The notes beneath the pieces are model-generated. The model saw only the letters and a list, made by a program, of their open reading frames with translations. It ran no database searches and was not told where the DNA came from. The position numbers and the translations under genes were made by a program. Of a DNA stretch of 64,000 nucleotides, positions 5,128 through 18,641 are shown in pieces. Position 1 is the first letter of the stretch. Every line of letters starts with the position of its first letter. The stretch comes from Escherichia coli. Its GTDB lineage: Bacteria; Pseudomonadota; Gammaproteobacteria; Enterobacterales; Enterobacteriaceae. The DNA is taken from assembly GCF_013315695.1 (NCBI RefSeq), contig NZ_CP054353.1, one strand, 5' to 3'.

Positions 5128-6951
5128 GTGATCGAAAAATTGCGTAATATCGCCATCATCGCGCACGTAGACCATGGTAAAACCACCCTGGTAGACAAGC
5201 TGCTCCAACAATCCGGTACGTTCGACTCTCGTGCCGAAACCCAAGAGCGCGTGATGGACTCCAACGATTTGGAGAAAGAGCGTGGGATTACCATCCTCGC
5301 GAAAAACACCGCTATCAAATGGAATGATTACCGTATCAACATCGTTGATACCCCGGGGCACGCCGACTTCGGTGGTGAAGTTGAACGTGTAATGTCCATG
5401 GTAGACTCAGTGCTGCTGGTGGTTGACGCATTTGACGGCCCGATGCCGCAAACGCGCTTCGTAACCAAAAAAGCGTTTGCTTACGGCCTGAAGCCGATTG
5501 TTGTTATCAACAAAGTTGACCGCCCTGGCGCGCGTCCTGATTGGGTTGTGGATCAGGTATTCGACCTGTTCGTTAACCTCGACGCGACCGACGAGCAGCT
5601 GGACTTCCCGATCGTTTACGCTTCTGCGCTGAACGGTATCGCGGGTCTGGACCACGAAGATATGGCGGAAGACATGACCCCGCTGTATCAGGCGATTGTT
5701 GACCACGTTCCTGCGCCGGACGTTGACCTTGACGGTCCGTTCCAGATGCAGATTTCTCAGCTCGATTACAACAGCTATGTTGGCGTTATCGGCATTGGCC
5801 GCATCAAGCGCGGTAAAGTGAAGCCGAACCAGCAGGTTACTATCATCGATAGCGAAGGCAAAACCCGCAACGCGAAAGTCGGTAAAGTGCTGGGCCACCT
5901 CGGTCTGGAACGTATCGAAACCGATCTGGCGGAAGCTGGCGATATCGTTGCGATCACGGGCCTTGGCGAACTGAACATTTCTGACACCGTTTGCGACACG
6001 CAAAACGTTGAAGCGCTGCCGGCACTCTCCGTTGATGAGCCGACCGTTTCTATGTTCTTCTGCGTTAACACCTCGCCGTTCTGCGGTAAAGAAGGTAAGT
6101 TCGTAACGTCTCGTCAGATCCTGGATCGTCTGAACAAAGAACTGGTACACAACGTTGCGCTGCGCGTAGAAGAAACCGAAGACGCCGATGCGTTCCGCGT
6201 TTCTGGTCGTGGCGAACTGCACCTGTCTGTTCTTATTGAAAACATGCGTCGTGAAGGTTTCGAACTGGCGGTATCCCGTCCGAAAGTAATCTTCCGTGAA
6301 ATCGACGGTCGTAAACAAGAGCCGTATGAAAACGTGACGCTGGACGTTGAAGAACAGCATCAGGGTTCTGTGATGCAGGCGCTGGGCGAACGTAAAGGCG
6401 ACCTGAAAAACATGAATCCAGACGGTAAAGGCCGCGTACGTCTCGACTACGTGATCCCAAGCCGTGGTCTGATTGGCTTCCGTTCTGAGTTCATGACCAT
6501 GACCTCTGGTACGGGTCTGTTATACTCCACCTTCAGCCACTATGACGACGTACGTCCGGGTGAAGTGGGTCAGCGTCAGAACGGCGTACTGATCTCTAAC
6601 GGTCAGGGTAAAGCGGTAGCGTTCGCGCTGTTCGGTCTGCAGGATCGCGGTAAGCTGTTCCTCGGTCACGGTGCAGAAGTTTACGAAGGTCAGATTATCG
6701 GTATTCACAGCCGCTCTAACGACCTGACTGTAAACTGCCTGACCGGTAAGAAACTGACCAACATGCGTGCTTCCGGTACTGACGAAGCCGTTGTTCTGGT
6801 TCCGCCTATCCGCATGACTCTGGAACAAGCTCTGGAGTTCATCGATGATGACGAACTGGTAGAAGTGACTCCAACCTCTATCCGTATTCGTAAACGTCAC
6901 CTGACGGAAAACGATCGTCGTCGCGCCAACCGCGCACCGAAAGACGATTAA
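5128..6951 (+). CDS. typA: ribosome-associated translational GTPase BipA/TypA
   Basis: 607-aa ORF with GTG start; [10 protein letters not shown]1 motif, DTPGH G3 motif, NKVD G4 motif; EF-G-like domain order. Confidence 0.95.
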
Positions 6952-6970
6952 TTTCGTTTTTTAGTTATAA

Positions 6971-7001
6971 AAAACCTGCCATCGCTGGCAGGTTTTTTTT
7001 G
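6971..7001 (+). terminator. Rho-independent terminator of typA
   Basis: cctgccatcgctggcagg hairpin followed by tttttttt. Confidence 0.8.
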
Positions 7002-7056
7002 CTTATGGAAAACAAAATCCGCTGAAATTCCCAGCGGATTTTCCGAAATTTCAATT

Positions 7057-7845
7057 TCAGGATACTTCTTGCTCGGCAACCACCAGTTCAACATTCTCTT
7101 CACTTAACAACTGGCAGAAAGAATTGGGAGGCGGGGCATCAGTAAAAAAAGCCCTGACATTCCGTGCATTGCCAATTGAAACGGCAGCAGACGCGGCAAA
7201 CTTCGTATGATCGGCCACTAACAATGTATTCCGCGCATGTTTAATCATCGTTCTCGCGACTAACGCTTCATTTACATCAAATTCCAGTAGGGTGCCGTCA
7301 TGTTCAATGGCACCTATACTGGTGATTAAATAATCTGCGCGGAAGCCTTCAATAAAATCCACGGCTCCTGGGCCGATAATCCCGCCGTTATGAGCGCGTA
7401 AAGTGCCTCCCGGCACCATCACTTCAATATCCTGATTCTTATAAAGAATCTGTGCCACACGTAGGCTGTTAGTGATAATGCGTAAATCACGCCGGTTGAG
7501 TAATGCCCTGGCAACGGCTTCTACGGTTGTACCGATGGTGATAAAGACGGTACAGCGTTCGGGAAGGTAATCGGCGACTGCCTCAGCGATCGCCCGTTTC
7601 TCGGCGGTGAGCGAAAGTTCCCGTTGCTCAAAAGCGGTATTCATGACGCTGGAGACGCGCCCGGCCCCTCCATGATGACGGGTGATCAAGCCCTGCTCAC
7701 TGAGTTTTCGGATATCCCGGCGCACGGTTTGCGTTGAAACATCCAGCAGTTGTGCCAGTTCTTCAATATTCATATAACCGCGTTCTGCGATTAGATGAAC
7801 GAGTTGGTCATGGCGTGGATTACCTGTCACTTCGATGATACTCAT
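7057..7845 (-). CDS. DeoR-family transcriptional regulator (YihW/CsqR-like)
   Basis: 262-aa ORF; N-terminal HTH IEELAQLLDVSTQTVRRDIRKL; C-terminal DeoR sugar-phosphate-binding-type domain. Confidence 0.8.
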   Translation of the reverse strand: MSIIEVTGNPRHDQLVHLIAERGYMNIEELAQLLDVSTQTVRRDIRKLSEQGLITRHHGGAGRVSSVMNTAFEQRELSLTAEKRAIAEAVADYLPERCTVFITIGTTVEAVARALLNRRDLRIITNSLRVAQILYKNQDIEVMVPGGTLRAHNGGIIGPGAVDFIEGFRADYLITSIGAIEHDGTLLEFDVNEALVARTMIKHARNTLLVADHTKFAASAAVSIGNARNVRAFFTDAPPPNSFCQLLSEENVELVVAEQEVS

Positions 7846-7884
7846 GAATACTCCCTTGCCCCTCCTCGGTAGATGTTTACCATT

Positions 7885-8781
7885 TTACGCATAAAGTGAC
7901 AAAAATGATTCGGTTTGCTCACGATTAGGAATGCCGGCCCGACCGCCAGGCTGGGTACATTTCATCGCGGCAACCGCACTGGCAAAACGAATAGCCTCTT
8001 TTGTTGGCATTTTTTCTGCCAACGCTACCGCGAGTGCGCCGTGAAAAACATCGCCTGCTCCAGTGGTATCAACCACATTGACAGAAAATGCCTCCTGTTG
8101 ACACAAATGACCATCTTCAATCCACAACGATCCTTCAGAACCCAGCGTAACATACACTTTACCTGCTGTTTGTGTCGTTGCCTGGAACAAACCTTCTTCA
8201 GGTGACTGCAGGCCAGTCATGCGTTTCAGCCCTGGTGTTGAGAACACGGCGTGATCGGCAAGCGCGACAAGTGGAGAAATATCCTGCGGTGTCATATCGG
8301 CGTCTAAAAGCGTTGTCACACCCGCAAGGCGCGCTAGCGAGAATGCTTTTTCAGTACCGCTATGCCAGCGAACATCGGCCAGAATCAGATCATAACGAGA
8401 GAAATCGATCGCTTCTAACCATTCGGCATCAGTACCGAGATCAGGACTTGGATAATTAACGATAATCCGTTCGCCATGCTGATCAACGAGGATCGCTGAT
8501 TGCGACGAACGGGCGTTAGGATATCGGCGGCAAAATGCGGTATTGACGCCCCAACCCTCAAGTTCTGCAAGTAAGGTATTTCCACAACTGTCATCGCCGA
8601 CGCGACCGATGAAATCAACCTCCACGCCAAGCTTTGCGATTGCAACAGCGGCTGTTGCTGCCGGGCCGCCACCAATCTCAAGATAATGATTTGCCTGATA
8701 TTTCCCGCCGCCCTCCGGCAGAGTGGGCAAAGAATAAATTCTGTCCTGAACTGTGATACCCACGTATGCAATTCTGGTCAT
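7885..8781 (-). CDS. PfkB-family sugar kinase (YihV-like)
   Basis: Seen: GG dipeptide ...[13 protein letters not shown] and C-terminal [12 protein letters not shown]fkB signature; ATG at 8781 preferred over track TTG start at 8820. Confidence 0.8.
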
Positions 8782-8953
8782 ATTTGTCTTGTCCTGTTTA
8801 ATTTTGTCGTCTTTGGTCAATTTAAATGACGCAAATGATCAAATTAGTGATGCGTGTCGTGTTTTTGAACATAAATTACAAATATGCTCAAAAACAGACG
8901 AAAACGAATTTTCAATTGTCATTATTTTGTCAATGTCAGACAGGAGAGTATTC

Positions 8954-9832
8954 ATGGCAACCATTGCATTTCTCGGGCTGGGGCAGATGGGTAGCCCAAT
9001 GGCTAACAATCTATTGCAAAAAGGGCATTCATTGCAGGTATTTGATGTCAATGCACAGGCCGTCGATGCGCTAGTTACGCAGGGGGCCACTGCGGCACAA
9101 ACCCCAGCGGAAGCAGCAGCAGGCGCTGAATTTATCATCACTATGCTTCCCAATGGTGACATTGTTCGACAGGTTCTGTTGGGGGAAAAAGGCGTCTGTG
9201 AGGCTGTTTCATCTGACGCGTTATTGATTGATATGTCGACTATTCATCCCTTACAGACCGATGCATTAATACGGGAGTTACAAGAAAAAGGCATCAGTAT
9301 GATGGACGCTCCCGTGGGCAGAACGTCCGTGAATGCGATTGATGGCACATTGCTGATTTTAGCGGGTGGCACTGATGAGCAGATTGCACGTGCACGCCCG
9401 ATTCTCATGTGCATGGGTAATGAGCTGGTCGAGGCTGGCGGCCCAGGAATGGGGATCCGCGTGAAGCTAATTAACAACTATATGAGCATTGCGCTTAATG
9501 CGCTGTCCTCCGAGGCCGCTGTGTTATGTGAGTCACTGGGATTAAATCTTGATGTCGCAATTAAGGTGATGAGTGGTACGGCAGCAGGGAAAGGACATTT
9601 TACGACCACCTGGCCTGGCAAAGTGCTGAAAGGCGATCTTTCACCCGCCTTCATGGTGGATCTGGCGTTGAAAGATCTGCGTATTGCAGTTGACGTCGCT
9701 CGGGAGACGGGGGCACCGCTCAATATGGGGATTGCAGCAGAAAGTTATTACGCTGCAGCAAGTCAAGACGGCAAAGGGCGGCAGGACTGGAGTGCCCTGC
9801 TAAATCAGGTTCGCCAGCAGGCTGGTCTTTAA
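8954..9832 (+). CDS. NAD(P)-dependent beta-hydroxyacid dehydrogenase (YihU-like, 3-hydroxyisobutyrate dehydrogenase family)
   Basis: Start ATG at 8954 preceded by aggaga RBS; Rossmann motif [14 protein letters not shown]; track ORF begins earlier at a non-ATG codon. Confidence 0.8.
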
Positions 9833-9856
9833 TTTTATCTATTAACAGGAGTTTCT

Positions 9857-10744
9857 ATGTCATCCCACTTCACCCCATTTACGCTGAAAGATATCTCCCG
9901 CCCAGGTGGTGGATTTGCCATGTTAGCTGTCGATCAGCGTGAGGCCATGCGCTTGATGTTTGCGGCAGCAGGGCAGCCAAAACCCATCGCCGACAGTGTA
10001 CTCACCGATTTTAAAGTTGCCGCGACCCGAATCCTTTCTCCTTATGCTTCTGCCGTTCTGGCGGATAAACAATTTTGTCTTGAGCAAATAGTCGAGCAGG
10101 GCGCTGTTGCTAATTCTTGCGGCCTGATTGTCGCTGCCGATCTTTTTATCCCAGGTAATGGCATCCCGGTTGATAGCGTTGAAATAGATATGTCCGTCGA
10201 CCCGCATAAAGCCCGTGAAATGGGGGCTAAGGCAATGAAATTACTTGTACTCTGGCGTGAAGATGAACCCGCAGAGGAACGTCTGGCAATGGTTGATAAA
10301 TTTGTTCGTCGCTGCCGTAGTGCCGGGCTGGTGAGCATTATTGAACCTGTGGTGCGTCCACCTCGTCGCGGTTGGGACTTTGATCGTGAAAGCGCCATTG
10401 TTGCCGCCGCCGCAGAGCTTGGTGGAACAGAGGCTGATCTTTACAAAGCCGAGATGCCATTAGGGGGCAAAGGCGATGAAAAAACCTTACTTGCCGCCTG
10501 TCAGCAACTTAACGATCAGATGAAGATGCCGTGGGTAATTCTTTCTTCTGGCGTTGATGCCGATATTTTTGGCCGTGCAGTAAGTATTGCCATGAAAGGT
10601 GGTGCGTCGGGCTTCCTGGCTGGACGAGCGGTTTGGGCGTCGGTTGTTGGTGCACAAGATCCACAAACTATGCTGCGCGATGTCTCTGTTCCTCGTTTAC
10701 AACGGTTGGCAGAAATTGTCGATGAAGGTATCGCGCAACGCTAA
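9857..10744 (+). CDS. class I aldolase, YihT/LacD-like (sugar-phosphate aldolase)
   Basis: 295-aa ORF with RBS aggag; resembles the YihT sulfofructose-phosphate aldolase / tagatose-bisphosphate aldolase family from memory. Confidence 0.7.
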
Positions 10745-10776
10745 TCCCCTATGGATATCGATTCTGGAGAATAACA

Positions 10777-11787
10777 ATGGATAAAATTACCCAGGTTTTA
10801 TTTTCAGATATTGGGAAAGTCACCACTCAATATGTTGAAGTACCACACCAGGAACTTAAACCGCACGAAGTGCGGATTGCGCCTGTGTTCTATGGGATAT
10901 GCGGTTCGGATCTGCATGTTCTGAAAGGCGGTCATCCGTTTGCCAAACCACCTGTCGTCCCCGGTCATGAAATTGCAGCGCGCGTTACGGAAGTTGGCAG
11001 CGACGTTAAAAATGTACAGCCGGGCGATCATGTTGTGGTCGATCCCATCATGGCTTGCATGGAATGCCGAGCCTGCAAAGCAGGACGTTTTAATCTTTGT
11101 GAACCACCGCAGGTTGCTGGTTTTCGCGCACCGGGCTTTGCTCGCTCACAACACATTGTTCCTGCGCGTAATTGCCATGTCGCACCAGCCTCTTTACCGC
11201 TAAAAGTGTTGGCCTTTGCCGAACCGGCGGCTTGTGCCCGTCACTGCGTTAACCGAATGCCGAAAGCTTCTCTGGAAAGCATACTGGTAATTGGTGCCGG
11301 AACGATAGGCTTATCCATCGTGCAGGCACTGCGCATTATGGGGGCAGGTAAGATTACCGTGATTGAACCTGACGCTGCCAAACGCGCGCTGGCGTTAAAG
11401 CTGGGCGCAGCAGAAGTTTGGGCACCAGGTGAGCTGGCCGCAGATGTGCGATTTACGGGGGCGATTGATGTCGTTGCAGCGCAGGCCACGCTTAACGATG
11501 CATGTACCCGTGTATATGCCGGAGGCACCGTCGTGTGCATGGGCGTACCAAGTGGGCCGCGTGAAATACCATTACCGATGATGCAACGTTTCGAGCGTGA
11601 CTTGCTCAACTCTGGCATGTACATCCCTGAAGATTTCGATGCTGTTATCGAATGGCTGGCGGATGGGCGGTTTGATACCAGTGAACTGGTTACCGATTTA
11701 TTTGCCATTGAGGATGCAGCGGCGGCATTTGAACGCGCGCAGCAAAATGACTCCATAAAGGTCATGCTGCAATTTGTGCCGGAATGA
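10777..11787 (+). CDS. zinc-dependent alcohol/polyol dehydrogenase (MDR superfamily)
   Basis: GICGSDLHV and PGHEIAARV zinc/catalytic motifs; second Cys cluster CMECRACKAGRFNLC (structural Zn); GAGTIG NAD-binding motif. Confidence 0.8.
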   Translation: MDKITQVLFSDIGKVTTQYVEVPHQELKPHEVRIAPVFYGICGSDLHVLKGGHPFAKPPVVPGHEIAARVTEVGSDVKNVQPGDHVVVDPIMACMECRACKAGRFNLCEPPQVAGFRAPGFARSQHIVPARNCHVAPASLPLKVLAFAEPAACARHCVNRMPKASLESILVIGAGTIGLSIVQALRIMGAGKITVIEPDAAKRALALKLGAAEVWAPGELAADVRFTGAIDVVAAQATLNDACTRVYAGGTVVCMGVPSGPREIPLPMMQRFERDLLNSGMYIPEDFDAVIEWLADGRFDTSELVTDLFAIEDAAAAFERAQQNDSIKVMLQFVPE

Positions 11788-11856
11788 TTTTCTAAATCTC
11801 TGTCTGGCGCTGCGTCACGTCAGCGCCACCCTACAACAATTAAAAAGGACACTGCG

Positions 11857-13290
11857 ATGAGTCAAATCACCAGTCCTGCAACTTATTCAATTAGTCGGCC
11901 ACAGGACGTAATTGATATTGTTAATAAGAACTCTGCAATCAACACCAGTATCGGCGTTATTTTTATTGCTTTGGGCGGCATATTGATTGATGCCTACCAG
12001 GCGGCGATGGTGGGGTTTGGTAATAAATACATTGCCGCTCAATTCGGCATTTCGCCGGGTCTTGCTGCAACCGTCAATGCATCAGTATTAATCGCCGCGT
12101 TAATTGGCGGTTTATTAGCGAACCGAGTAATAAACCGCTTTGGGCAAAAGCGGGCATTTATTATTGGCATGGGGCTGTGCACCATCGGTGCTGCAGCGGT
12201 AGCTATTGCTCCCAGTATCTGGTGGGTGCTGGTGTGCCGCGTCATCATGGGCTTTGGTTTAGGCATCGACTTCCCTTTGGCAACCAATGCCGTGGCAGAG
12301 CTTCGTGGTTCAACGTCGAAGAAAACCGGAACGTCGGTCAACCTCTGGCAAATGGCCTGGTATGTTTCGACAACCGTTGTTTATTTGGTACTTTTGCCGC
12401 TGCTTCTGTCGGGTATCGCTGAAGAACAATTGTGGCGTTACGGAATATTCATCGGAGCTATTTTTGCAGTCATCTTCATGATTTTGCGTTACTTCTTTAT
12501 TGGTGAATCCGCAATGTGGGCCGCACGCGTCGGGCGTTACCAGGAAGCGTGCGACATTCTGGGAAAACGTTATGGTGTTCAGGCTCGCGTTGCGGCATCG
12601 GGTACAACAGAAGCGAAATTCTCGGAAAAAGCAGAGAATAAATACAGTGGTGGATATGGCATCTTATTTAATGATCGTTACCGCAAACGCACCATTCTTG
12701 GCTGTGTCGTGGCAACCATGCAGGCGTGGCAATATAACGCCGTAGGTGTTTATCTTCCTCTTACGTTGGCGGGAATAATAAGTGGCGGGCTTACTGGCGC
12801 GTTGACCGGTTCTGCCGTCGTGAATGCCCTTTGTGGGGTGACAGGCGGGATGATCGGCTCGTTTATTCTCCAACGACTGGGTACTCGCCGACAGTCGATG
12901 TATGGATTTGCTGTTGTGACCTTAGCATTGCTGTCGTTAGGCGCACTGGCAACGACTAATCCCTGGCTGTCTTTAGGATTATTGGGATCAATTATTTTCT
13001 TCCATTCAGCGGGTCCTGGTGGGCTGGGCATGACCATTGCCACACTCTCTTATCCTCCCGCTATTCGCCCTACTGGGGTCGGATTTGCCCGCGCTATTAT
13101 GCGCACAGGGGCAATTGCAGGACTCATTTTCTGGCCGATGCTGTGGGGTGCGTTGAAAACTGAAGCGTTTTACTGGTTGGCAATCGTGCCATTCCTGGGG
13201 TTCCTGACCTGCGTATTGATTAATTGGGAACCACTGGGTGCAAATGTTGATGCTGAGGATGCAGAGGTTCTGGCTGAATTGAAGAAATAA
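11857..13290 (+). CDS. MFS-type transporter (sugar porter-like)
   Basis: 477-aa highly hydrophobic ORF with about 12 predicted TM segments; MFS-like GxLaNRxGQKR loop. Confidence 0.7.
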   Translation: MSQITSPATYSISRPQDVIDIVNKNSAINTSIGVIFIALGGILIDAYQAAMVGFGNKYIAAQFGISPGLAATVNASVLIAALIGGLLANRVINRFGQKRAFIIGMGLCTIGAAAVAIAPSIWWVLVCRVIMGFGLGIDFPLATNAVAELRGSTSKKTGTSVNLWQMAWYVSTTVVYLVLLPLLLSGIAEEQLWRYGIFIGAIFAVIFMILRYFFIGESAMWAARVGRYQEACDILGKRYGVQARVAASGTTEAKFSEKAENKYSGGYGILFNDRYRKRTILGCVVATMQAWQYNAVGVYLPLTLAGIISGGLTGALTGSAVVNALCGVTGGMIGSFILQRLGTRRQSMYGFAVVTLALLSLGALATTNPWLSLGLLGSIIFFHSAGPGGLGMTIATLSYPPAIRPTGVGFARAIMRTGAIAGLIFWPMLWGALKTEAFYWLAIVPFLGFLTCVLINWEPLGANVDAEDAEVLAELKK

Positions 13291-13327
13291 ATTAATGCGC
13301 ATCGGCTTAAACCGATGCGCATTAATT
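13290..13327. repeat. perfect 16-bp-arm palindrome between the two transporter genes
   Basis: aattaatgcgcatcgg-cttaaa-ccgatgcgcattaatt; no following T-run. Confidence 0.6.
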
Positions 13328-13388
13328 CAAACTGCCCACGTTTAGTGGTTCGTATCCCAGATTTCTCGCCTACCAGGAGAGGAAAATT

Positions 13389-14738
13389 ATGTCTGAAAAG
13401 TTACCCGCACCGCGTGAAGGGCTTTCCGGTAAAGCCATGAGACGTGTCGTTATGGGCAGTTTCGCAGGCGCGTTAATGGAATGGTATGACTTCTTTATTT
13501 TTGGCACGGCAGCAGGACTGGTATTTGCACCGCTGTTTTATCCAGACAGCGATCCTTTTATAGGTCTTATAGCCGCCTTTGCGACCTTTGGTGTCGGTTT
13601 TCTGACTCGTCCTTTAGGTGGCATCGTCTTTGGTCATTTTGGCGATAAAATCGGGCGAAAAATAACACTTATCTGGACGCTGGCTATTGTCGGTTGCTCC
13701 ACATTTTTGATTGGTTTTATTCCGACGTATCAGGAAATTGGCATTTGGGCACCGCTTGTATTAATGGTGCTGCGTTTGATTCAGGGCTTTGGTCTTGGTG
13801 GCGAGTACGGCGGAGCGGCATTGATGACCATAGAATCAGCGCCCGAATCCCGACGCGGATTTTTAGGTTCACTCCCGCAAACGGCTGCGTCAGTGGGTAT
13901 TATGCTGGCAACCGGTATTTTTGCTCTCTGTAACCATTTTCTTACTTCGGAGCAGTTTCTCTCCTGGGGATGGCGCATTCCGTTTTGGCTTTCTGCGGTG
14001 ATGTTGATCGTTGGGCTGTTTATCCGCCTGCATACCGAAGAAACACTGGATTTTCAAAAGCAAAAAACGACGAATAATAAAGAAAAGTCCGTTCCTCCGT
14101 TGATTGAATTATTCAAAAAACATCCACGAAATATTTTATTGGCACTGGGTGCGAGGCTGGCGGAAAGTGTCTCCTCTAATATTATTAACGCCTTTGGTAT
14201 TGTCTATATTTCCAGCCAATTAGCATTGTCGCGAGATATTCCCCTGACGGGTATGTTGATTGCCTCGGCGATCGGTATTTTCAGTTGTCCATTGGTTGGA
14301 TGGTTATCAGATCGTATAGGTCAAAAAAGTCTGTATTTGTCGGGAGCAGGATTTTGTGTCCTGTTCGCGTTTCCTTTCTTCTTATTACTGGATAGCAAAA
14401 GTACGCTCATCATCTGGTGCAGTATGATCCTCGGCTACAACTTAGGTCCGACGATGATGTTTGCCGTGCAGCCAACACTTTTCACCCGCATGTTCGGTAC
14501 CAAAGTACGATATACCGGCCTTTCTTTTGCTTATCAATTTTCCGCGATTCTTGGCGGACTAAGCCCCCTTATCGCCTCAAGTTTGCTGGCGCTAGGGGGA
14601 GGAAAACCGTGGTATGTCGCTCTGTTTTTATTTGCTGTCTCAGTTCTTTCCTTTGTTTGCGTCTGGCTGATTGAGCCGACCGATGAACAAGAAACCGCTT
14701 CTTACCGCTACATCAGGGAACAATCTCATGAAAACTGA
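13389..14738 (+). CDS. MFS transporter, metabolite:H+ symporter (MHS)-like
   Basis: 449-aa ORF; N-terminal MEWYDFFIFGTAAG and GHFGDKIGRK motifs typical of the ProP/KgtP/ShiA family. Confidence 0.7.
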   Translation: MSEKLPAPREGLSGKAMRRVVMGSFAGALMEWYDFFIFGTAAGLVFAPLFYPDSDPFIGLIAAFATFGVGFLTRPLGGIVFGHFGDKIGRKITLIWTLAIVGCSTFLIGFIPTYQEIGIWAPLVLMVLRLIQGFGLGGEYGGAALMTIESAPESRRGFLGSLPQTAASVGIMLATGIFALCNHFLTSEQFLSWGWRIPFWLSAVMLIVGLFIRLHTEETLDFQKQKTTNNKEKSVPPLIELFKKHPRNILLALGARLAESVSSNIINAFGIVYISSQLALSRDIPLTGMLIASAIGIFSCPLVGWLSDRIGQKSLYLSGAGFCVLFAFPFFLLLDSKSTLIIWCSMILGYNLGPTMMFAVQPTLFTRMFGTKVRYTGLSFAYQFSAILGGLSPLIASSLLALGGGKPWYVALFLFAVSVLSFVCVWLIEPTDEQETASYRYIREQSHEN

Positions 14739-15615
14739 ACGAAAAAACGAGCATTACCTGGCGCTACAACAGGCGTTTGACGCGCCATGGCCTGGGCCTG
14801 TAGGAGAGTTAGTGACGCTGGAAAAAGGCAATATTCACCTGCAGATTTATCCGCATGATGGTGCCAGGATAACCTCGTTAAAGGCATTTGGTTCTGAAGT
14901 ATTACGCCAATGGCAGCCGCAGCGCAGAGCTTTTCAGTATGGCTGTTTCCCAATGGTGCCGTGGGCAGGGCGACTGGGGAATGCGACGCTGAATGCTGGT
15001 GGGCAATGTTATTCTTTACCCGCCAATAAACCACCACATGCGTTGCATGGTATGGCTTGTTACTCAACGTGGGAAATCATCGACAAAACAGCAGATTCCC
15101 TGACTTTACGTATGCCCCTGGCTTCACCGTGGCCCTGGCAAGGGGAAGTGATTCAGACTTTTTTGCTGGAGAACGATGCGCTGGTTTTGCAACTGGAAGT
15201 CCATTCATATGCCGATACATTCCCGGCCTCCGCAGGCTGGCATCCGTGGTTTGCGAAAAAGCTGACTCCGCAAAATACAGAATCGTTGCAGGTGCTTTTT
15301 GATGCGGACTGGCAAGAAGAAGCGGGTAGTGATGAACTGCCAACTGGAAATCGTATCTCTCCTCAAGCCGGTCCCTGGGATGACTGTTTTGGTTTTTATA
15401 ACGGGGTGAAGGTTAAGTTACTGTGGCCTGGTAAACTCGCGATGACCATGATCTCTTCTGCAAACAGTCTGGTGGTATTTGATAAACAGCCCGATGCCAC
15501 CTGTATTAACCCGCTGACTCAGGCACCTAACGCAATAAATCTAACGCCGGAATTGGTGACACCAGATAGGCCGCTGGTCATCGAAACTCGTTGGCAATTT
15601 ACACCTGAATCTTAA
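14728..15615 (+). CDS. aldose 1-epimerase family protein (YihR-like mutarotase)
   Basis: ATG at 14728 overlaps the preceding stop (ATGAAAACTGA); HPYFNL-like region and conserved His/Glu pattern of the galactose-mutarotase fold. Confidence 0.65.
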   Translation: MKTERKNEHYLALQQAFDAPWPGPVGELVTLEKGNIHLQIYPHDGARITSLKAFGSEVLRQWQPQRRAFQYGCFPMVPWAGRLGNATLNAGGQCYSLPANKPPHALHGMACYSTWEIIDKTADSLTLRMPLASPWPWQGEVIQTFLLENDALVLQLEVHSYADTFPASAGWHPWFAKKLTPQNTESLQVLFDADWQEEAGSDELPTGNRISPQAGPWDDCFGFYNGVKVKLLWPGKLAMTMISSANSLVVFDKQPDATCINPLTQAPNAINLTPELVTPDRPLVIETRWQFTPES

Positions 15616-17221: not shown

Positions 17222-17655
17222 TTGCATTAATTCAACGCGTAACCCGTGCCAGCGTCACCGTGGAGGGAGAAGTGACGGGCGAAATTGGCGCGGGACTTTT
17301 GGTGTTATTGGGTGTCGAAAAGGATGACGACGAACAGAAAGCAAACCGTCTGTGCGAGCGTGTGCTCGGCTATCGCATCTTTAGCGATGTCGAAGGCAAG
17401 ATGAACCTCAACGTGCAACAGGCGGGCGGCAGTGTGCTGGTGGTTTCCCAGTTTACCCTCGCCGCAGATACCGAACGGGGGATGCGTCCAAGTTTCTCCA
17501 AAGGTGCATCACCGGATCGCGCAGAGGCGTTATATGACTATTTCGTCGAACGCTGCCGTCAGCAAGAGATGAACACGCAAACAGGACGCTTCGCTGCGGA
17601 TATGCAGGTATCGCTGGTCAATGATGGCCCCGTGACATTCTGGTTGCAGGTATGA
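17218..17655 (+). CDS. dtd: D-aminoacyl-tRNA deacylase
   Basis: 145-aa [16 protein letters not shown]...; SQFTL motif; ATGA overlap with yihY. Confidence 0.93.
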
Positions 17656-18641
17656 GCCAGCTTCCAGGGTTGTCACGGGAAACAAGAGAGAGTATCGCTA
17701 TGTATCACCTTCGGGTTCCACAAACAGAAGAAGAATTAGAGCGTTACTATCAGTTTCGCTGGGAAATGTTGCGTAAGCCCCTGCATCAACCGAAAGGTTC
17801 GGAACGCGACGCGTGGGATGCGATGGCGCATCACCAGATGGTCGTCGACGAGCAGGGTAATCTGGTGGCGGTAGGCCGACTGTATATTAATGCCGACAAT
17901 GAAGCGTCCATTCGCTTTATGGCCGTTCATCCCGACGTGCAGGACAAAGGGTTAGGAACGCTGATGGCGATGACCCTTGAGTCGGTGGCGCGTCAGGAAG
18001 GCGTTAAGCGCGTGACCTGTAGTGCCCGTGAAGACGCGGTGGAGTTTTTTGCCAAACTGGGGTTTGTCAATCAAGGGGAGATCACTACCCCAACCACCAC
18101 GCCGATTCGCCATTTTTTGATGATTAAACCCGTTGCCACTCTGGATGATATTTTGCATCGCGGCGACTGGTGCGCGCAGCTGCAACAGGCGTGGTACGAA
18201 CATATCCCGCTGAGTGAAAAAATGGGCGTGCGCATTCAGCAATATACCGGGCAAAAATTTATCACCACCATGCCGGAAACCGGTAATCAGAATCCGCACC
18301 ATACGCTGTTTGCCGGGAGTTTATTCTCACTGGCAACGCTCACCGGTTGGGGACTTATCTGGCTGATGCTGCGTGAACGCCATCTGGGCGGTACGATTAT
18401 TCTGGCGGATGCGCATATTCGCTACAGCAAGCCGATTAGCGGTAAACCTCATGCGGTAGCCGACCTCGGTGCCTTAAGCGGCGATCTCGACCGTCTGGCG
18501 CGCGGGCGCAAAGCGCGGGTACAAATGCAGGTCGAAATCTTTGGCGACGAGACGCCGGGCGCAGTGTTTGAAGGCACGTATATCGTTCTGCCCGCGAAGC
18601 CATTTGGCCCGTATGAAGAGGGCGGGAACGAAGAAGAGTAG
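17652..18641 (+). CDS. yiiD: GNAT acetyltransferase / thioesterase-fold protein YiiD (FabY)
   Basis: 329-aa ORF; N-terminal GNAT domain and C-terminal hot-dog-like region; overlaps dtd stop. Confidence 0.88.

Follow-up and report, generated by a model that had tools for sequence, protein, structure and literature searches.

The window (the whole stretch of Escherichia coli DNA analysed here, 64,000 nucleotides) is chromosomal, matches several complete genomes at 100% identity and carries the gene order glnA, typA, leftward yihW'-yihV' and rightward yihU' to an epimerase gene, followed by yihX. The leftward yihV' (7885-8781, - strand, start ATG at 8781) encodes a PfkB sugar kinase with 67% identity to its K-12 counterpart, which keeps the K27/N109/R138 triad of sulfofructose kinase as defined previously (PMC8006165). 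Downstream of it lies yihW' (7057-7845, - strand), which encodes a DeoR/GlpR-family regulator of 262 amino acids. On the + strand, yihU' (8954-9832) encodes a beta-hydroxyacid dehydrogenase of the sulfolactaldehyde reductase type, which is 73% identical to the K-12 enzyme, clears the NF012005 model (581 bits against a cut-off of 348) and retains the sulfonate-binding residues R123/N174/S178. It is followed by genes for a yihT'-like aldolase (9857-10744), a Zn-dependent dehydrogenase (10777-11787), two MFS transporters (11857-13290 and 13389-14738) and an aldose 1-epimerase (about 14728-15615), the last being the final gene of the rightward cassette block (8954-15615).

In K-12, the typA-yihX interval has the long form, comprising yihLMN-ompL-yihOPQRSTU and, divergently, yihVW. 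By the gene content of this interval, the window thus belongs to the "short yih cassette" of the Nissle 1917 type, which was described in 2025 in Nissle 1917 and many pathogenic strains (PMC12608037). The spacer between yihV' and yihU' is present at 95% identity or more in 1326 of the 5426 complete E. coli genomes, including Nissle 1917, ST131, O104:H4 and many ExPEC strains, so that the cassette stands in place of the K-12 sulfoquinovose operon in about a quarter of them; in the other E. coli genomes, the 3.8-kb region is matched only at 60-80% identity. The order of the rightward genes is kept as far as the first MFS transporter, where the compared flanks end, in Citrobacter, Mixta, Trabulsiella, Phytobacter, Enterobacter and Erwinia.

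The intergenic control region (8782-8953; 172 bp, 31.4% GC) fills the exact gap between the two divergent genes, and its description in the first-pass annotation as an AT-rich spacer between a PfkB kinase and a beta-hydroxyacid dehydrogenase holds with exact coordinates. It differs from the Nissle 1917 spacer at a single position, 8831 (G here, A in Nissle).

The regulator YihW' and its known targets

YihW' shares 72% identity with CsqR of K-12, and residues 33-63 (LLDVSTQTVRRDIRKLSEQGLITRHHGGAGR), which form the recognition region of the winged helix-turn-helix, are identical in the two proteins. The recognition helix STQT(V/I)RRDI(R/K)KL is retained as well in homologues from Vibrio and Serratia, whose overall identity is no more than 47-50%. 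The closest NCBIfam model is GlpR PRK10906 (256 bits, under its cut-off). Judging from its recognition region, YihW' should read the same DNA as CsqR. In gel shift assays, YihW of Nissle and CsqR of K-12 each bind the Nissle yihU/V and yihV/W fragments, each protein also binding the other's fragment, and the high-molecular-weight complexes formed on the Nissle fragments are partly dissociated by sulfoquinovose (PMC12608037). In vivo, sulfoquinovose fails to induce the short cassette, and the dissociation by this sugar is weaker than in K-12 (PMC12608037). As the fragment assayed differs at only one base from the present spacer, binding of the adjacent DeoR-family regulator, which the first-pass annotation had proposed to control this divergent promoter region, has in effect already been shown for this DNA by the published work. 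Cooperative, polymeric complexes are also described from gel shift and atomic force microscopy data (PMC8006165), which fits an array of units.

Other papers surveyed speak of "three binding sites" and do not give their sequences. A DNase footprint of the K-12 region is reportedly contained in Shimada et al. 2019. By ChIP-exo in K-12, YihW has one strong site at 4071641-4071681 (NC_000913.2; signal/noise 168; nearest gene yihV) and a weak signal at glpA (signal/noise 13.7). With the offset of 1977 between versions.2 and.3 of NC_000913, which was checked against the published yihV start (4071737, equal to the ATG minus 25), the strong site corresponds to CGATAAATTACAAATACGATCAAAAACAGACAAGCAAAGCA, located at -87 to -47 from the yihU ATG (17619-17659 of the K-12 locus, L002). 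In the window, this site corresponds by homology to 8869-8909, where 27 of the first 31 positions agree with K-12.

TTGTC words and recurrent TGACA units

The spacer was noted in the first-pass annotation for at least five copies of TTGTC(A). Exactly five TTGTC words are present, all on the + strand (8784, 8789, 8804, 8916 and 8927), the last two being TTGTCA, and the exact word was searched for on the - strand of the spacer with no occurrence. Measured against 20,000 dinucleotide-preserving shuffles of the spacer, which contain 0.72 copies on average, the count is well above composition (P(≥5) = 2e-4), and no second stretch of 172 bp with five same-strand copies is found in the 64 kb. This excess shrinks to P = 0.14 over any 5-mer, as 13.9% of the shuffles contain at least one 5-mer with five copies (3.3% without pure A/T words). 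The excess is therefore real for that word, but the count alone is a borderline discovery, and support for the motif has to come from comparative data. All five copies are present in divergent E. coli alleles. The + strand TGTC words at 8785, 8805, 8855, 8917 and 8928 may be helically phased, although no weight is placed on this.

A scan of one genome per species gave 77 loci, and about 70 orthologous spacers were compared. Ten loci are of the short type (Escherichia sp., four Citrobacter, Mixta, Trabulsiella, Phytobacter, Enterobacter sp. and Erwinia typographi) and about 50 of the long type, while Yersinia, Serratia, Chimaeribacter and Vibrio form a group with other neighbours. No genome with both cassettes was found among the 77 loci of this one-genome-per-species scan; a provisional case in Citrobacter amalonaticus was withdrawn, as the three loci concerned (L004, L033 and L072) belong to different genomes. 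The length of the spacer is strikingly constant across loci (about 152-173 bp).

Motif discovery over the orthologous intergenic regions, which the first-pass annotation had suggested as a check, places TGACA/TGTCA first and GACAA/TTGTC fifth. In the unbiased strand-collapsed 5-mer scan of 23 lineage-representative yihU-proximal segments (mutual similarity ≤75%), TGACA/TGTCA is found 30 times, spread over 18 segments, where 6.2 occurrences would be expected (z = 10.6; no 5-mer exceeded 26 in the shuffles), and autocorrelation at lag 10 over the 23 lineages reaches z = 8.1, both scores being inflated because the compared sequences are homologous. Successive same-strand TGACA/TGTCA pairs are spaced by 10 bp in 11 cases and by 11 bp in three, while in the window alone the autocorrelation at lags 10 and 11 (0.37 and 0.39) is unremarkable. 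Long-type spacers contain a conserved direct pair TGACA-N5-TGACA between the yihU promoter and its Shine-Dalgarno sequence, and also CTGTCAA, GTGAC and TTGAC, and Chimaeribacter has TGACA-N7-TGTCA. Vibrio and Serratia DD3, whose spacers can not be aligned with the others and are without the ATAAATTACAAATA block, carry the inverted 8-bp repeat TGACATTG-N10-CAATGTCA. TGACA/TGTCA thus persists through turnover of position and orientation. TTGTCA is the recurrent unit, TGACAA, as it stands on the opposite strand.

A 13-column position weight matrix (PWM), derived from conservation, not from footprints, and trained solely on lineages other than the short type, finds eight matches of at least 6 bits in the spacer against 1.33 ± 1.09 in dinucleotide shuffles, none of 2000 reaching eight. 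The spacer is the densest cluster of such matches in the 64 kb, the runner-up region having four. The matches include copy 3 (8801-8813, 10.3 bits, the best within the spacer), copy 5 (8924-8936, 8.0 bits), copy 2 (8786-8798, 7.7 bits), AATGACG (8823-8835, 7.5 bits) and copy 4 (8913-8925, 6.0 bits). They are moderate (6-10 bits) compared with the 13-14 bits of the K-12 sites.

The five TTGTC copies differ in their fate. Copies 1 and 2 (TTGTCTTGTC, 8784-8793) lie in the 5' leader of yihV', where copy 2 overlaps the yihV' Shine-Dalgarno sequence (AGGA, 8792-8795, - strand). Among the 11 short-type orthologues, just TGT of copy 1 is preserved, while copy 2 is not preserved, its constant C12/C13 belonging to the Shine-Dalgarno sequence; outside Escherichia and C. 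amalonaticus, the PWM score of both drops below zero. These two copies are probably fortuitous leader and Shine-Dalgarno sequence. Copy 3 (AAGACGACAAAAT on the - strand, 8801-8813, with the word itself at 8804-8808) is located at about +5 to +9 of the presumed yihV' promoter and is the sole copy conserved across genera, TGTC/GAC being retained in 10 of the 11 short-type orthologues. As TTGTCGTCT (8804-8812), it mirrors AGACGAAAA (8896-8904), inverted about position 8854. Copies 4 and 5 (8916-8921 and 8927-8932) form, together with ATGTCA (8933-8938), a group in the yihU' leader (8916-8938, + strand) and occupy the place of the long-type TGACA-N5-TGACA pair with reversed orientation. They are spaced by 11 bp, or by 10 bp in UM146 through a 1-bp deletion. 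TTGT of copy 4 is preserved among the short-type orthologues, its C changing to A or G outside Escherichia to yield TTGTAATT, which repeats the core AATTACAA in inverted form, so that TGACA at copy 4 is restricted to Escherichia; copy 5 is found in Escherichia and three of the four Citrobacter only. Copies 3, 4 and 5 are plausible candidate operator units. The proposal that the TTGTC(A) words are operator half-sites thus stands in part, as the word matches the recurrent unit and copies 3-5 are credible, while copies 1 and 2 drop out for want of conservation.

Promoters and conserved blocks

In K-12, transcription starts have been mapped, among others, at -25/-27 for yihV and at -62/-63 for yihU (PMC5816610), and starts in the window were carried over from them through spacer alignments. 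The putative -10 element of PyihV' (TAAATT/TTAAAT, 8819-8825, - strand; TAAAAT in other genera and in K-12, where the mapped yihV start puts it at -12 to -7) would give a start at about 8812-8813, and the block holding it, CATTTTAAT, is shared by the spacers of the long type, the short type and Yersinia/Serratia. The putative -10 element of PyihU' (TATGCT, 8883-8888, + strand) is the homologue of K-12 TACGAT, which occupies -11 to -6 from the mapped yihU start, and would give a start at about 8893-8894. When 8700-9050 was scanned with the sigma-70 consensus, no promoter was detected; both promoters are thus weak by consensus, and their positions are based on homology to the K-12 starts. The yihU' Shine-Dalgarno sequence is AGGAG (8942-8946, + strand), of which GGAG is invariant in short-type orthologues. 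An Rfam search of 8600-9150 for a riboswitch or small RNA gave a sub-threshold match to a eukaryotic snoRNA (27 against 37 bits, E = 0.054), which was judged to be chance and leaves no RNA element of either kind to explain the region.

The invariant part of the 11 short-type spacers corresponds to 8820-8904 of the window and includes AATGAC, AAATGATCAAATT, GTGA...GTC and CATAAATTACAAATATG-TCAAAAACAGACGAAAA. Its best-conserved candidate sites, AATGAC(A) and the block at 8869-8909, were overlooked in the first-pass annotation. AATGACG (8825-8831, + strand; AATGACA in Nissle and most strains) abuts the PyihV' -10 element and is the most conserved TGACA-type unit of the short-type spacers, AATGAC being invariant in all 11. 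The unit scores 10.7-13.1 bits in nine of the other ten short-type orthologues and 7.5 bits in the window because of the A>G change at 8831.

The core block ACATAAATTACAAATATGCTCAAAAACAGACGAAAACGAAT (8869-8909, + strand), the homologue of the K-12 ChIP-exo site, can be read as three units phased by 10 bp, ATTACAAATA, TGCTCAAAAA and CAGACGAAAA, and is near-invariant in short-type, long-type and Yersinia/Serratia spacers. It is without any TTGTC or TGACA, its units being degenerate (TTACAA, CTCAAA and AGACGA). The unit cores T(G/T)ACAA, TCAAA and GACRA are degenerate versions of TGACAA. Overlapping the block is a near-perfect palindrome, TGTTTTTGAACATA/TATGCTCAAAAACA (8860-8896), with arms of 14 nt (8860-8873 and 8883-8896; 93% complementary) around a centre of 9 nt, the outer GTTTTT...AAAAAC of which is conserved in both short- and long-type spacers.

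Between AATGAC and the core block lies the dyad AGTGA-N6-TCGTG (8846-8861, centre 8853.5), in which GTGA and GTC are invariant. It may be a site of the CRP type or a palindrome read by YihW. CRP binds the yihU/V region in K-12 (PMC5816610), and the centre of the dyad, at about -41.5/-40.5 from the starts assigned by K-12 homology, gives a geometry that fits a shared class II CRP site; the match to the CRP consensus is 6/10 only. In long-type spacers, the dyad is replaced by TGAC-N4-GTCA, a palindrome that could equally be a YihW site.

With respect to the presumed promoters, the core units fall at -18 to +7 of PyihU', AATGAC(A) lies in the PyihV' spacer beside the -10 element, and the TGTCA triplet (8917-8938) is at about +23 to +44 of the yihU' leader. 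All of the candidate unit positions, including the one at the yihW' promoter, can in principle allow a bound repressor to occlude RNA polymerase.

The best PWM match of the entire 64-kb window on both strands (14.7 bits) is TTTTTGTCACTTT at 7893-7905 (- strand; AAAGTGACAAAAA on the + strand). It lies within the last codons of yihV', immediately before the yihW' -10 element (TAAAAT, 7882-7887) and in the spacer of that promoter, and corresponds by homology to the K-12 yihV/W fragment, which is the other known target of CsqR. No short-type locus departs from this site, and nearly all long-type loci share it. Of 153 yihV codon columns in which the amino acid is conserved, S295 is the most tightly constrained at the synonymous level, being TCA in 97% of the 66 sequences, followed by Q289 (CAA, 94%), which lies in the upstream TGTGATCAAAC block. 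TTTTTGTCACTTT at 7893-7905 is thus a candidate autoregulatory YihW operator.

Proposed control by YihW' and rival explanations

The region closely resembles the yihU/yihV region controlled by CsqR in K-12, with which it shares the gene pair, the divergent layout, a similar spacer length (172 bp, against 167 bp in K-12), the core CATAAATTACAAATA-yG-mTCAAAAACAGAC, the PyihV -10 block and the GTGA...GTC dyad. However, the K-12 yihU leader carries a strong TGACA-N5-TGACA pair and a TGTCAT-AA-ATGACA palindrome (13-14 bits by PWM), whereas the TGTCA units in the yihU' leader of the window are reversed, 11 bp apart and weaker (6-8 bits), and the window has extra units near yihV' (8801-8831) that are absent in K-12.

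Other DeoR-family systems offer further parallels. The operators of the glp regulon comprise several adjacent, helically phased units that overlap promoters and are bound by the oligomeric repressor GlpR, which likewise represses through a phased array of units; its half-site, of the TGTTCGA palindrome type, differs from the units described here. The one GlpR-like half-site of the spacer, TTGAACAT (8866-8873), was considered and rejected because its columns vary among short-type orthologues. DeoR and AgaR of E. coli act through multiple operators, with looping and direct repeats, and they also use short sites over about 150 bp near divergent or tandem promoters in a cooperative higher-order complex, although the unit sequences differ from those found here and looping is a feature of DeoR and AgaR.

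The reading that we favour, with a little more confidence than doubt, is that YihW' binds an array of T(G/T)ACA(A) units spanning both promoters of a bidirectional control region. One promoter would drive yihV'-yihW' leftward and the other yihU', yihT', the dehydrogenase and the transporters rightward. YihW' would cooperatively occupy the short units, which mostly follow one another at 10-11 bp and face either way, and would most likely make its primary contact at the core (8869-8909), over the -10 element and start of PyihU'. The flanking units (8825-8831, 8801-8813 and 8916-8938) would let the oligomer spread across both promoters and make it more stable, while the single strong unit at 7893-7905 would provide autoregulation of yihW'. 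A sulfosugar effector may free the repressor, sulfoquinovose doing so only weakly for the short-cassette variant. Against an array stand the position of the in vivo ChIP-exo site of K-12, over a block without TTGTC or TGACA, the poor conservation of four of the five TTGTC copies in short-type orthologues and the look-elsewhere P of 0.14.

These same observations would suit the main rival, which we regard as doubtful though possible, in which the YihW operator is confined to the central block (about 8860-8909), perhaps together with the dyad at 8846-8861, and the five TTGTC words are by-products of T-rich leader, Shine-Dalgarno and promoter-flanking DNA. The ChIP-exo peak of K-12 falls on the central block and on no TGACA unit, the 37-bp palindrome lies in the core, copies 1, 2, 4 and 5 are not kept across genera, and the Shine-Dalgarno sequence accounts for copy 2, all of which agree with such an operator, as does the modest look-elsewhere significance. 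However, TGACA units turn up at a constant location in nearly all lineages although the sequence around them has changed, and they occur also in the non-alignable Vibrio spacers that lack the central block. The top PWM match coincides with the second known target, the cluster in the spacer is significant against shuffles, and the cooperative, polymeric binding described in the literature calls for more than one site. It is improbable that the TGACA/GTGAC words are half-sites of another factor, such as CRP (TGTGA/TCACA-like) or a nucleoid protein. GTGAC/GTCAC do resemble CRP half-sites and the dyad lies at about -41.5/-40.5 from the two presumed starts, but the majority of units repeat directly at 10 bp and do not form TGTGA-N6-TCACA dyads, the dyad itself matches CRP at six of ten positions only, and the motif tracks a yihW homologue with a conserved recognition helix. 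Slighter still is the probability that the repeats are functionless and arose by chance in a spacer of 31% GC; the frequency with which some 5-mer attains five copies in shuffles speaks for it, whereas the rank in the 5-mer scan, the PWM matches and their density, the conservation and synonymous constraint of the yihW' site, and the retention of all five copies in divergent E. coli alleles speak against it.

The interpretation given in the first-pass annotation is partly supported and largely known, the spacer being an ordinary control region that follows the CsqR paradigm of K-12. Binding of YihW to it is already published, while the map at the level of sites is new as far as the literature surveyed shows, and incremental. 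It adds which TTGTC copies are credible, the conserved units that had been missed and the putative yihW' operator embedded in coding sequence. Such a map provides targets for footprinting, operator mutagenesis and the construction of reporters or biosensors, and could help to find the true inducer.

More tentatively, the short cassette may encode a distinct and conserved pathway of eight genes that handles another sulfosugar, and would then be no degenerate form of the sulfoquinovose operon; the genes concerned comprise those of the kinase, aldolase, reductase, Zn-dehydrogenase, two MFS transporters and mutarotase. YihW' would then respond to some other effector, and the operator array would have been remodelled in Escherichia through the gain of inverted TGTCA units in the yihU' leader, the addition of units on the yihV' side and the alteration of the PyihV' -10 element. 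This remodelling, if true, would explain the silence of the cassette on sulfoquinovose.

Extent and function of the short cassette

The short yihTUVW cassette, so named in a 2025 paper (PMC12608037), extends rightward past yihTUVW and also includes genes for a Zn-dependent dehydrogenase, for two MFS transporters and for an aldose 1-epimerase (window 8954-15615). Among the short-type loci compared (L003-L010, L070 and L075), at least seven genera share the gene order W,V / U,T,dehydrogenase,MFS, with protein identities of 72-98%. This conservation suggests that the cassette is a unit in its own right and not the product of a recent truncation. The short and long forms were found together in no genome of the scan, which covered one genome per species and 77 loci.

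Sulfoquinovose does not induce the short cassette (PMC12608037). Despite this, the cassette probably still handles a sulfosugar, as both enzymes retain the sulfonate-recognition residues structurally defined in their K-12 counterparts, namely K27/N109/R138 in the kinase (window 7885-8781) and R123/N174/S178 in the reductase (window 8954-9832).

Boundaries and internal hairpins

The left boundary of the cassette is marked by two back-to-back terminator-like hairpins between typA and yihW' (window 6969-6998 on the plus strand and 7014-7042 on the minus strand). The two MFS transporter genes are separated by a perfect hairpin with a 19-bp stem, TAAATTAATGCGCATCGGCTTAAACCGATGCGCATTAATTCA (window 13288-13329), which may be an internal terminator, attenuator or REP-like element splitting the rightward operon. 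The 317-aa ORF antisense to typA/bipA (window 5407-6360, minus strand), for which NCBIfam gave no match, is in all likelihood spurious, a mere shadow ORF.

Operator variants and regulatory sites

Within the yihV'/yihU' spacer, position 8831 is G in the window strain versus A in Nissle 1917, UM146, ATCC 8739 and MSB1_9D. With this A>G substitution, the best-conserved unit reads AATGACG instead of AATGACA, and its PWM score drops to 7.5 from about 13. The G is a possible natural operator variant. In E. coli UM146 (L082), TTGTCA copies 4 and 5 are 10 bp apart instead of 11, owing to a 1-bp deletion in the T-run that separates them (aligned to window 8924-8927); a spacing of 10 bp is typical for long-type cassettes. 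A match to a eukaryotic C/D-box snoRNA in the spacer (window 8824-8939, minus strand) scored 27 bits in Rfam (E = 0.054), below the gathering score of 37, and was rejected as an AT-rich chance match.

In the K-12 YihW ChIP-exo list, a secondary site with a weak signal (signal/noise 13.7) falls immediately upstream of glpA (L084, taaaaaacgaacttcag), in a region where GlpR operators lie. The glpA site hints at cross-recognition between YihW and GlpR, which are DeoR-family paralogues. GACGAAAACGAAT in the core of the window's spacer resembles taaaaaacgaacttcag and is not conserved among orthologues.

The yihW' promoter is embedded in the 3' end of the yihV' coding sequence (window 7882-7923), and comprises a CRP-like CGTGAGCAAAC block, a TTTTTGTCACTTT unit and a -10 element (TAAAAT) that shares bases with the stop codon of yihV'. 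Across 66 yihV sequences, the strongest synonymous constraint is found at codons S295 (TCA, 97%) and Q289 (CAA, 94%).
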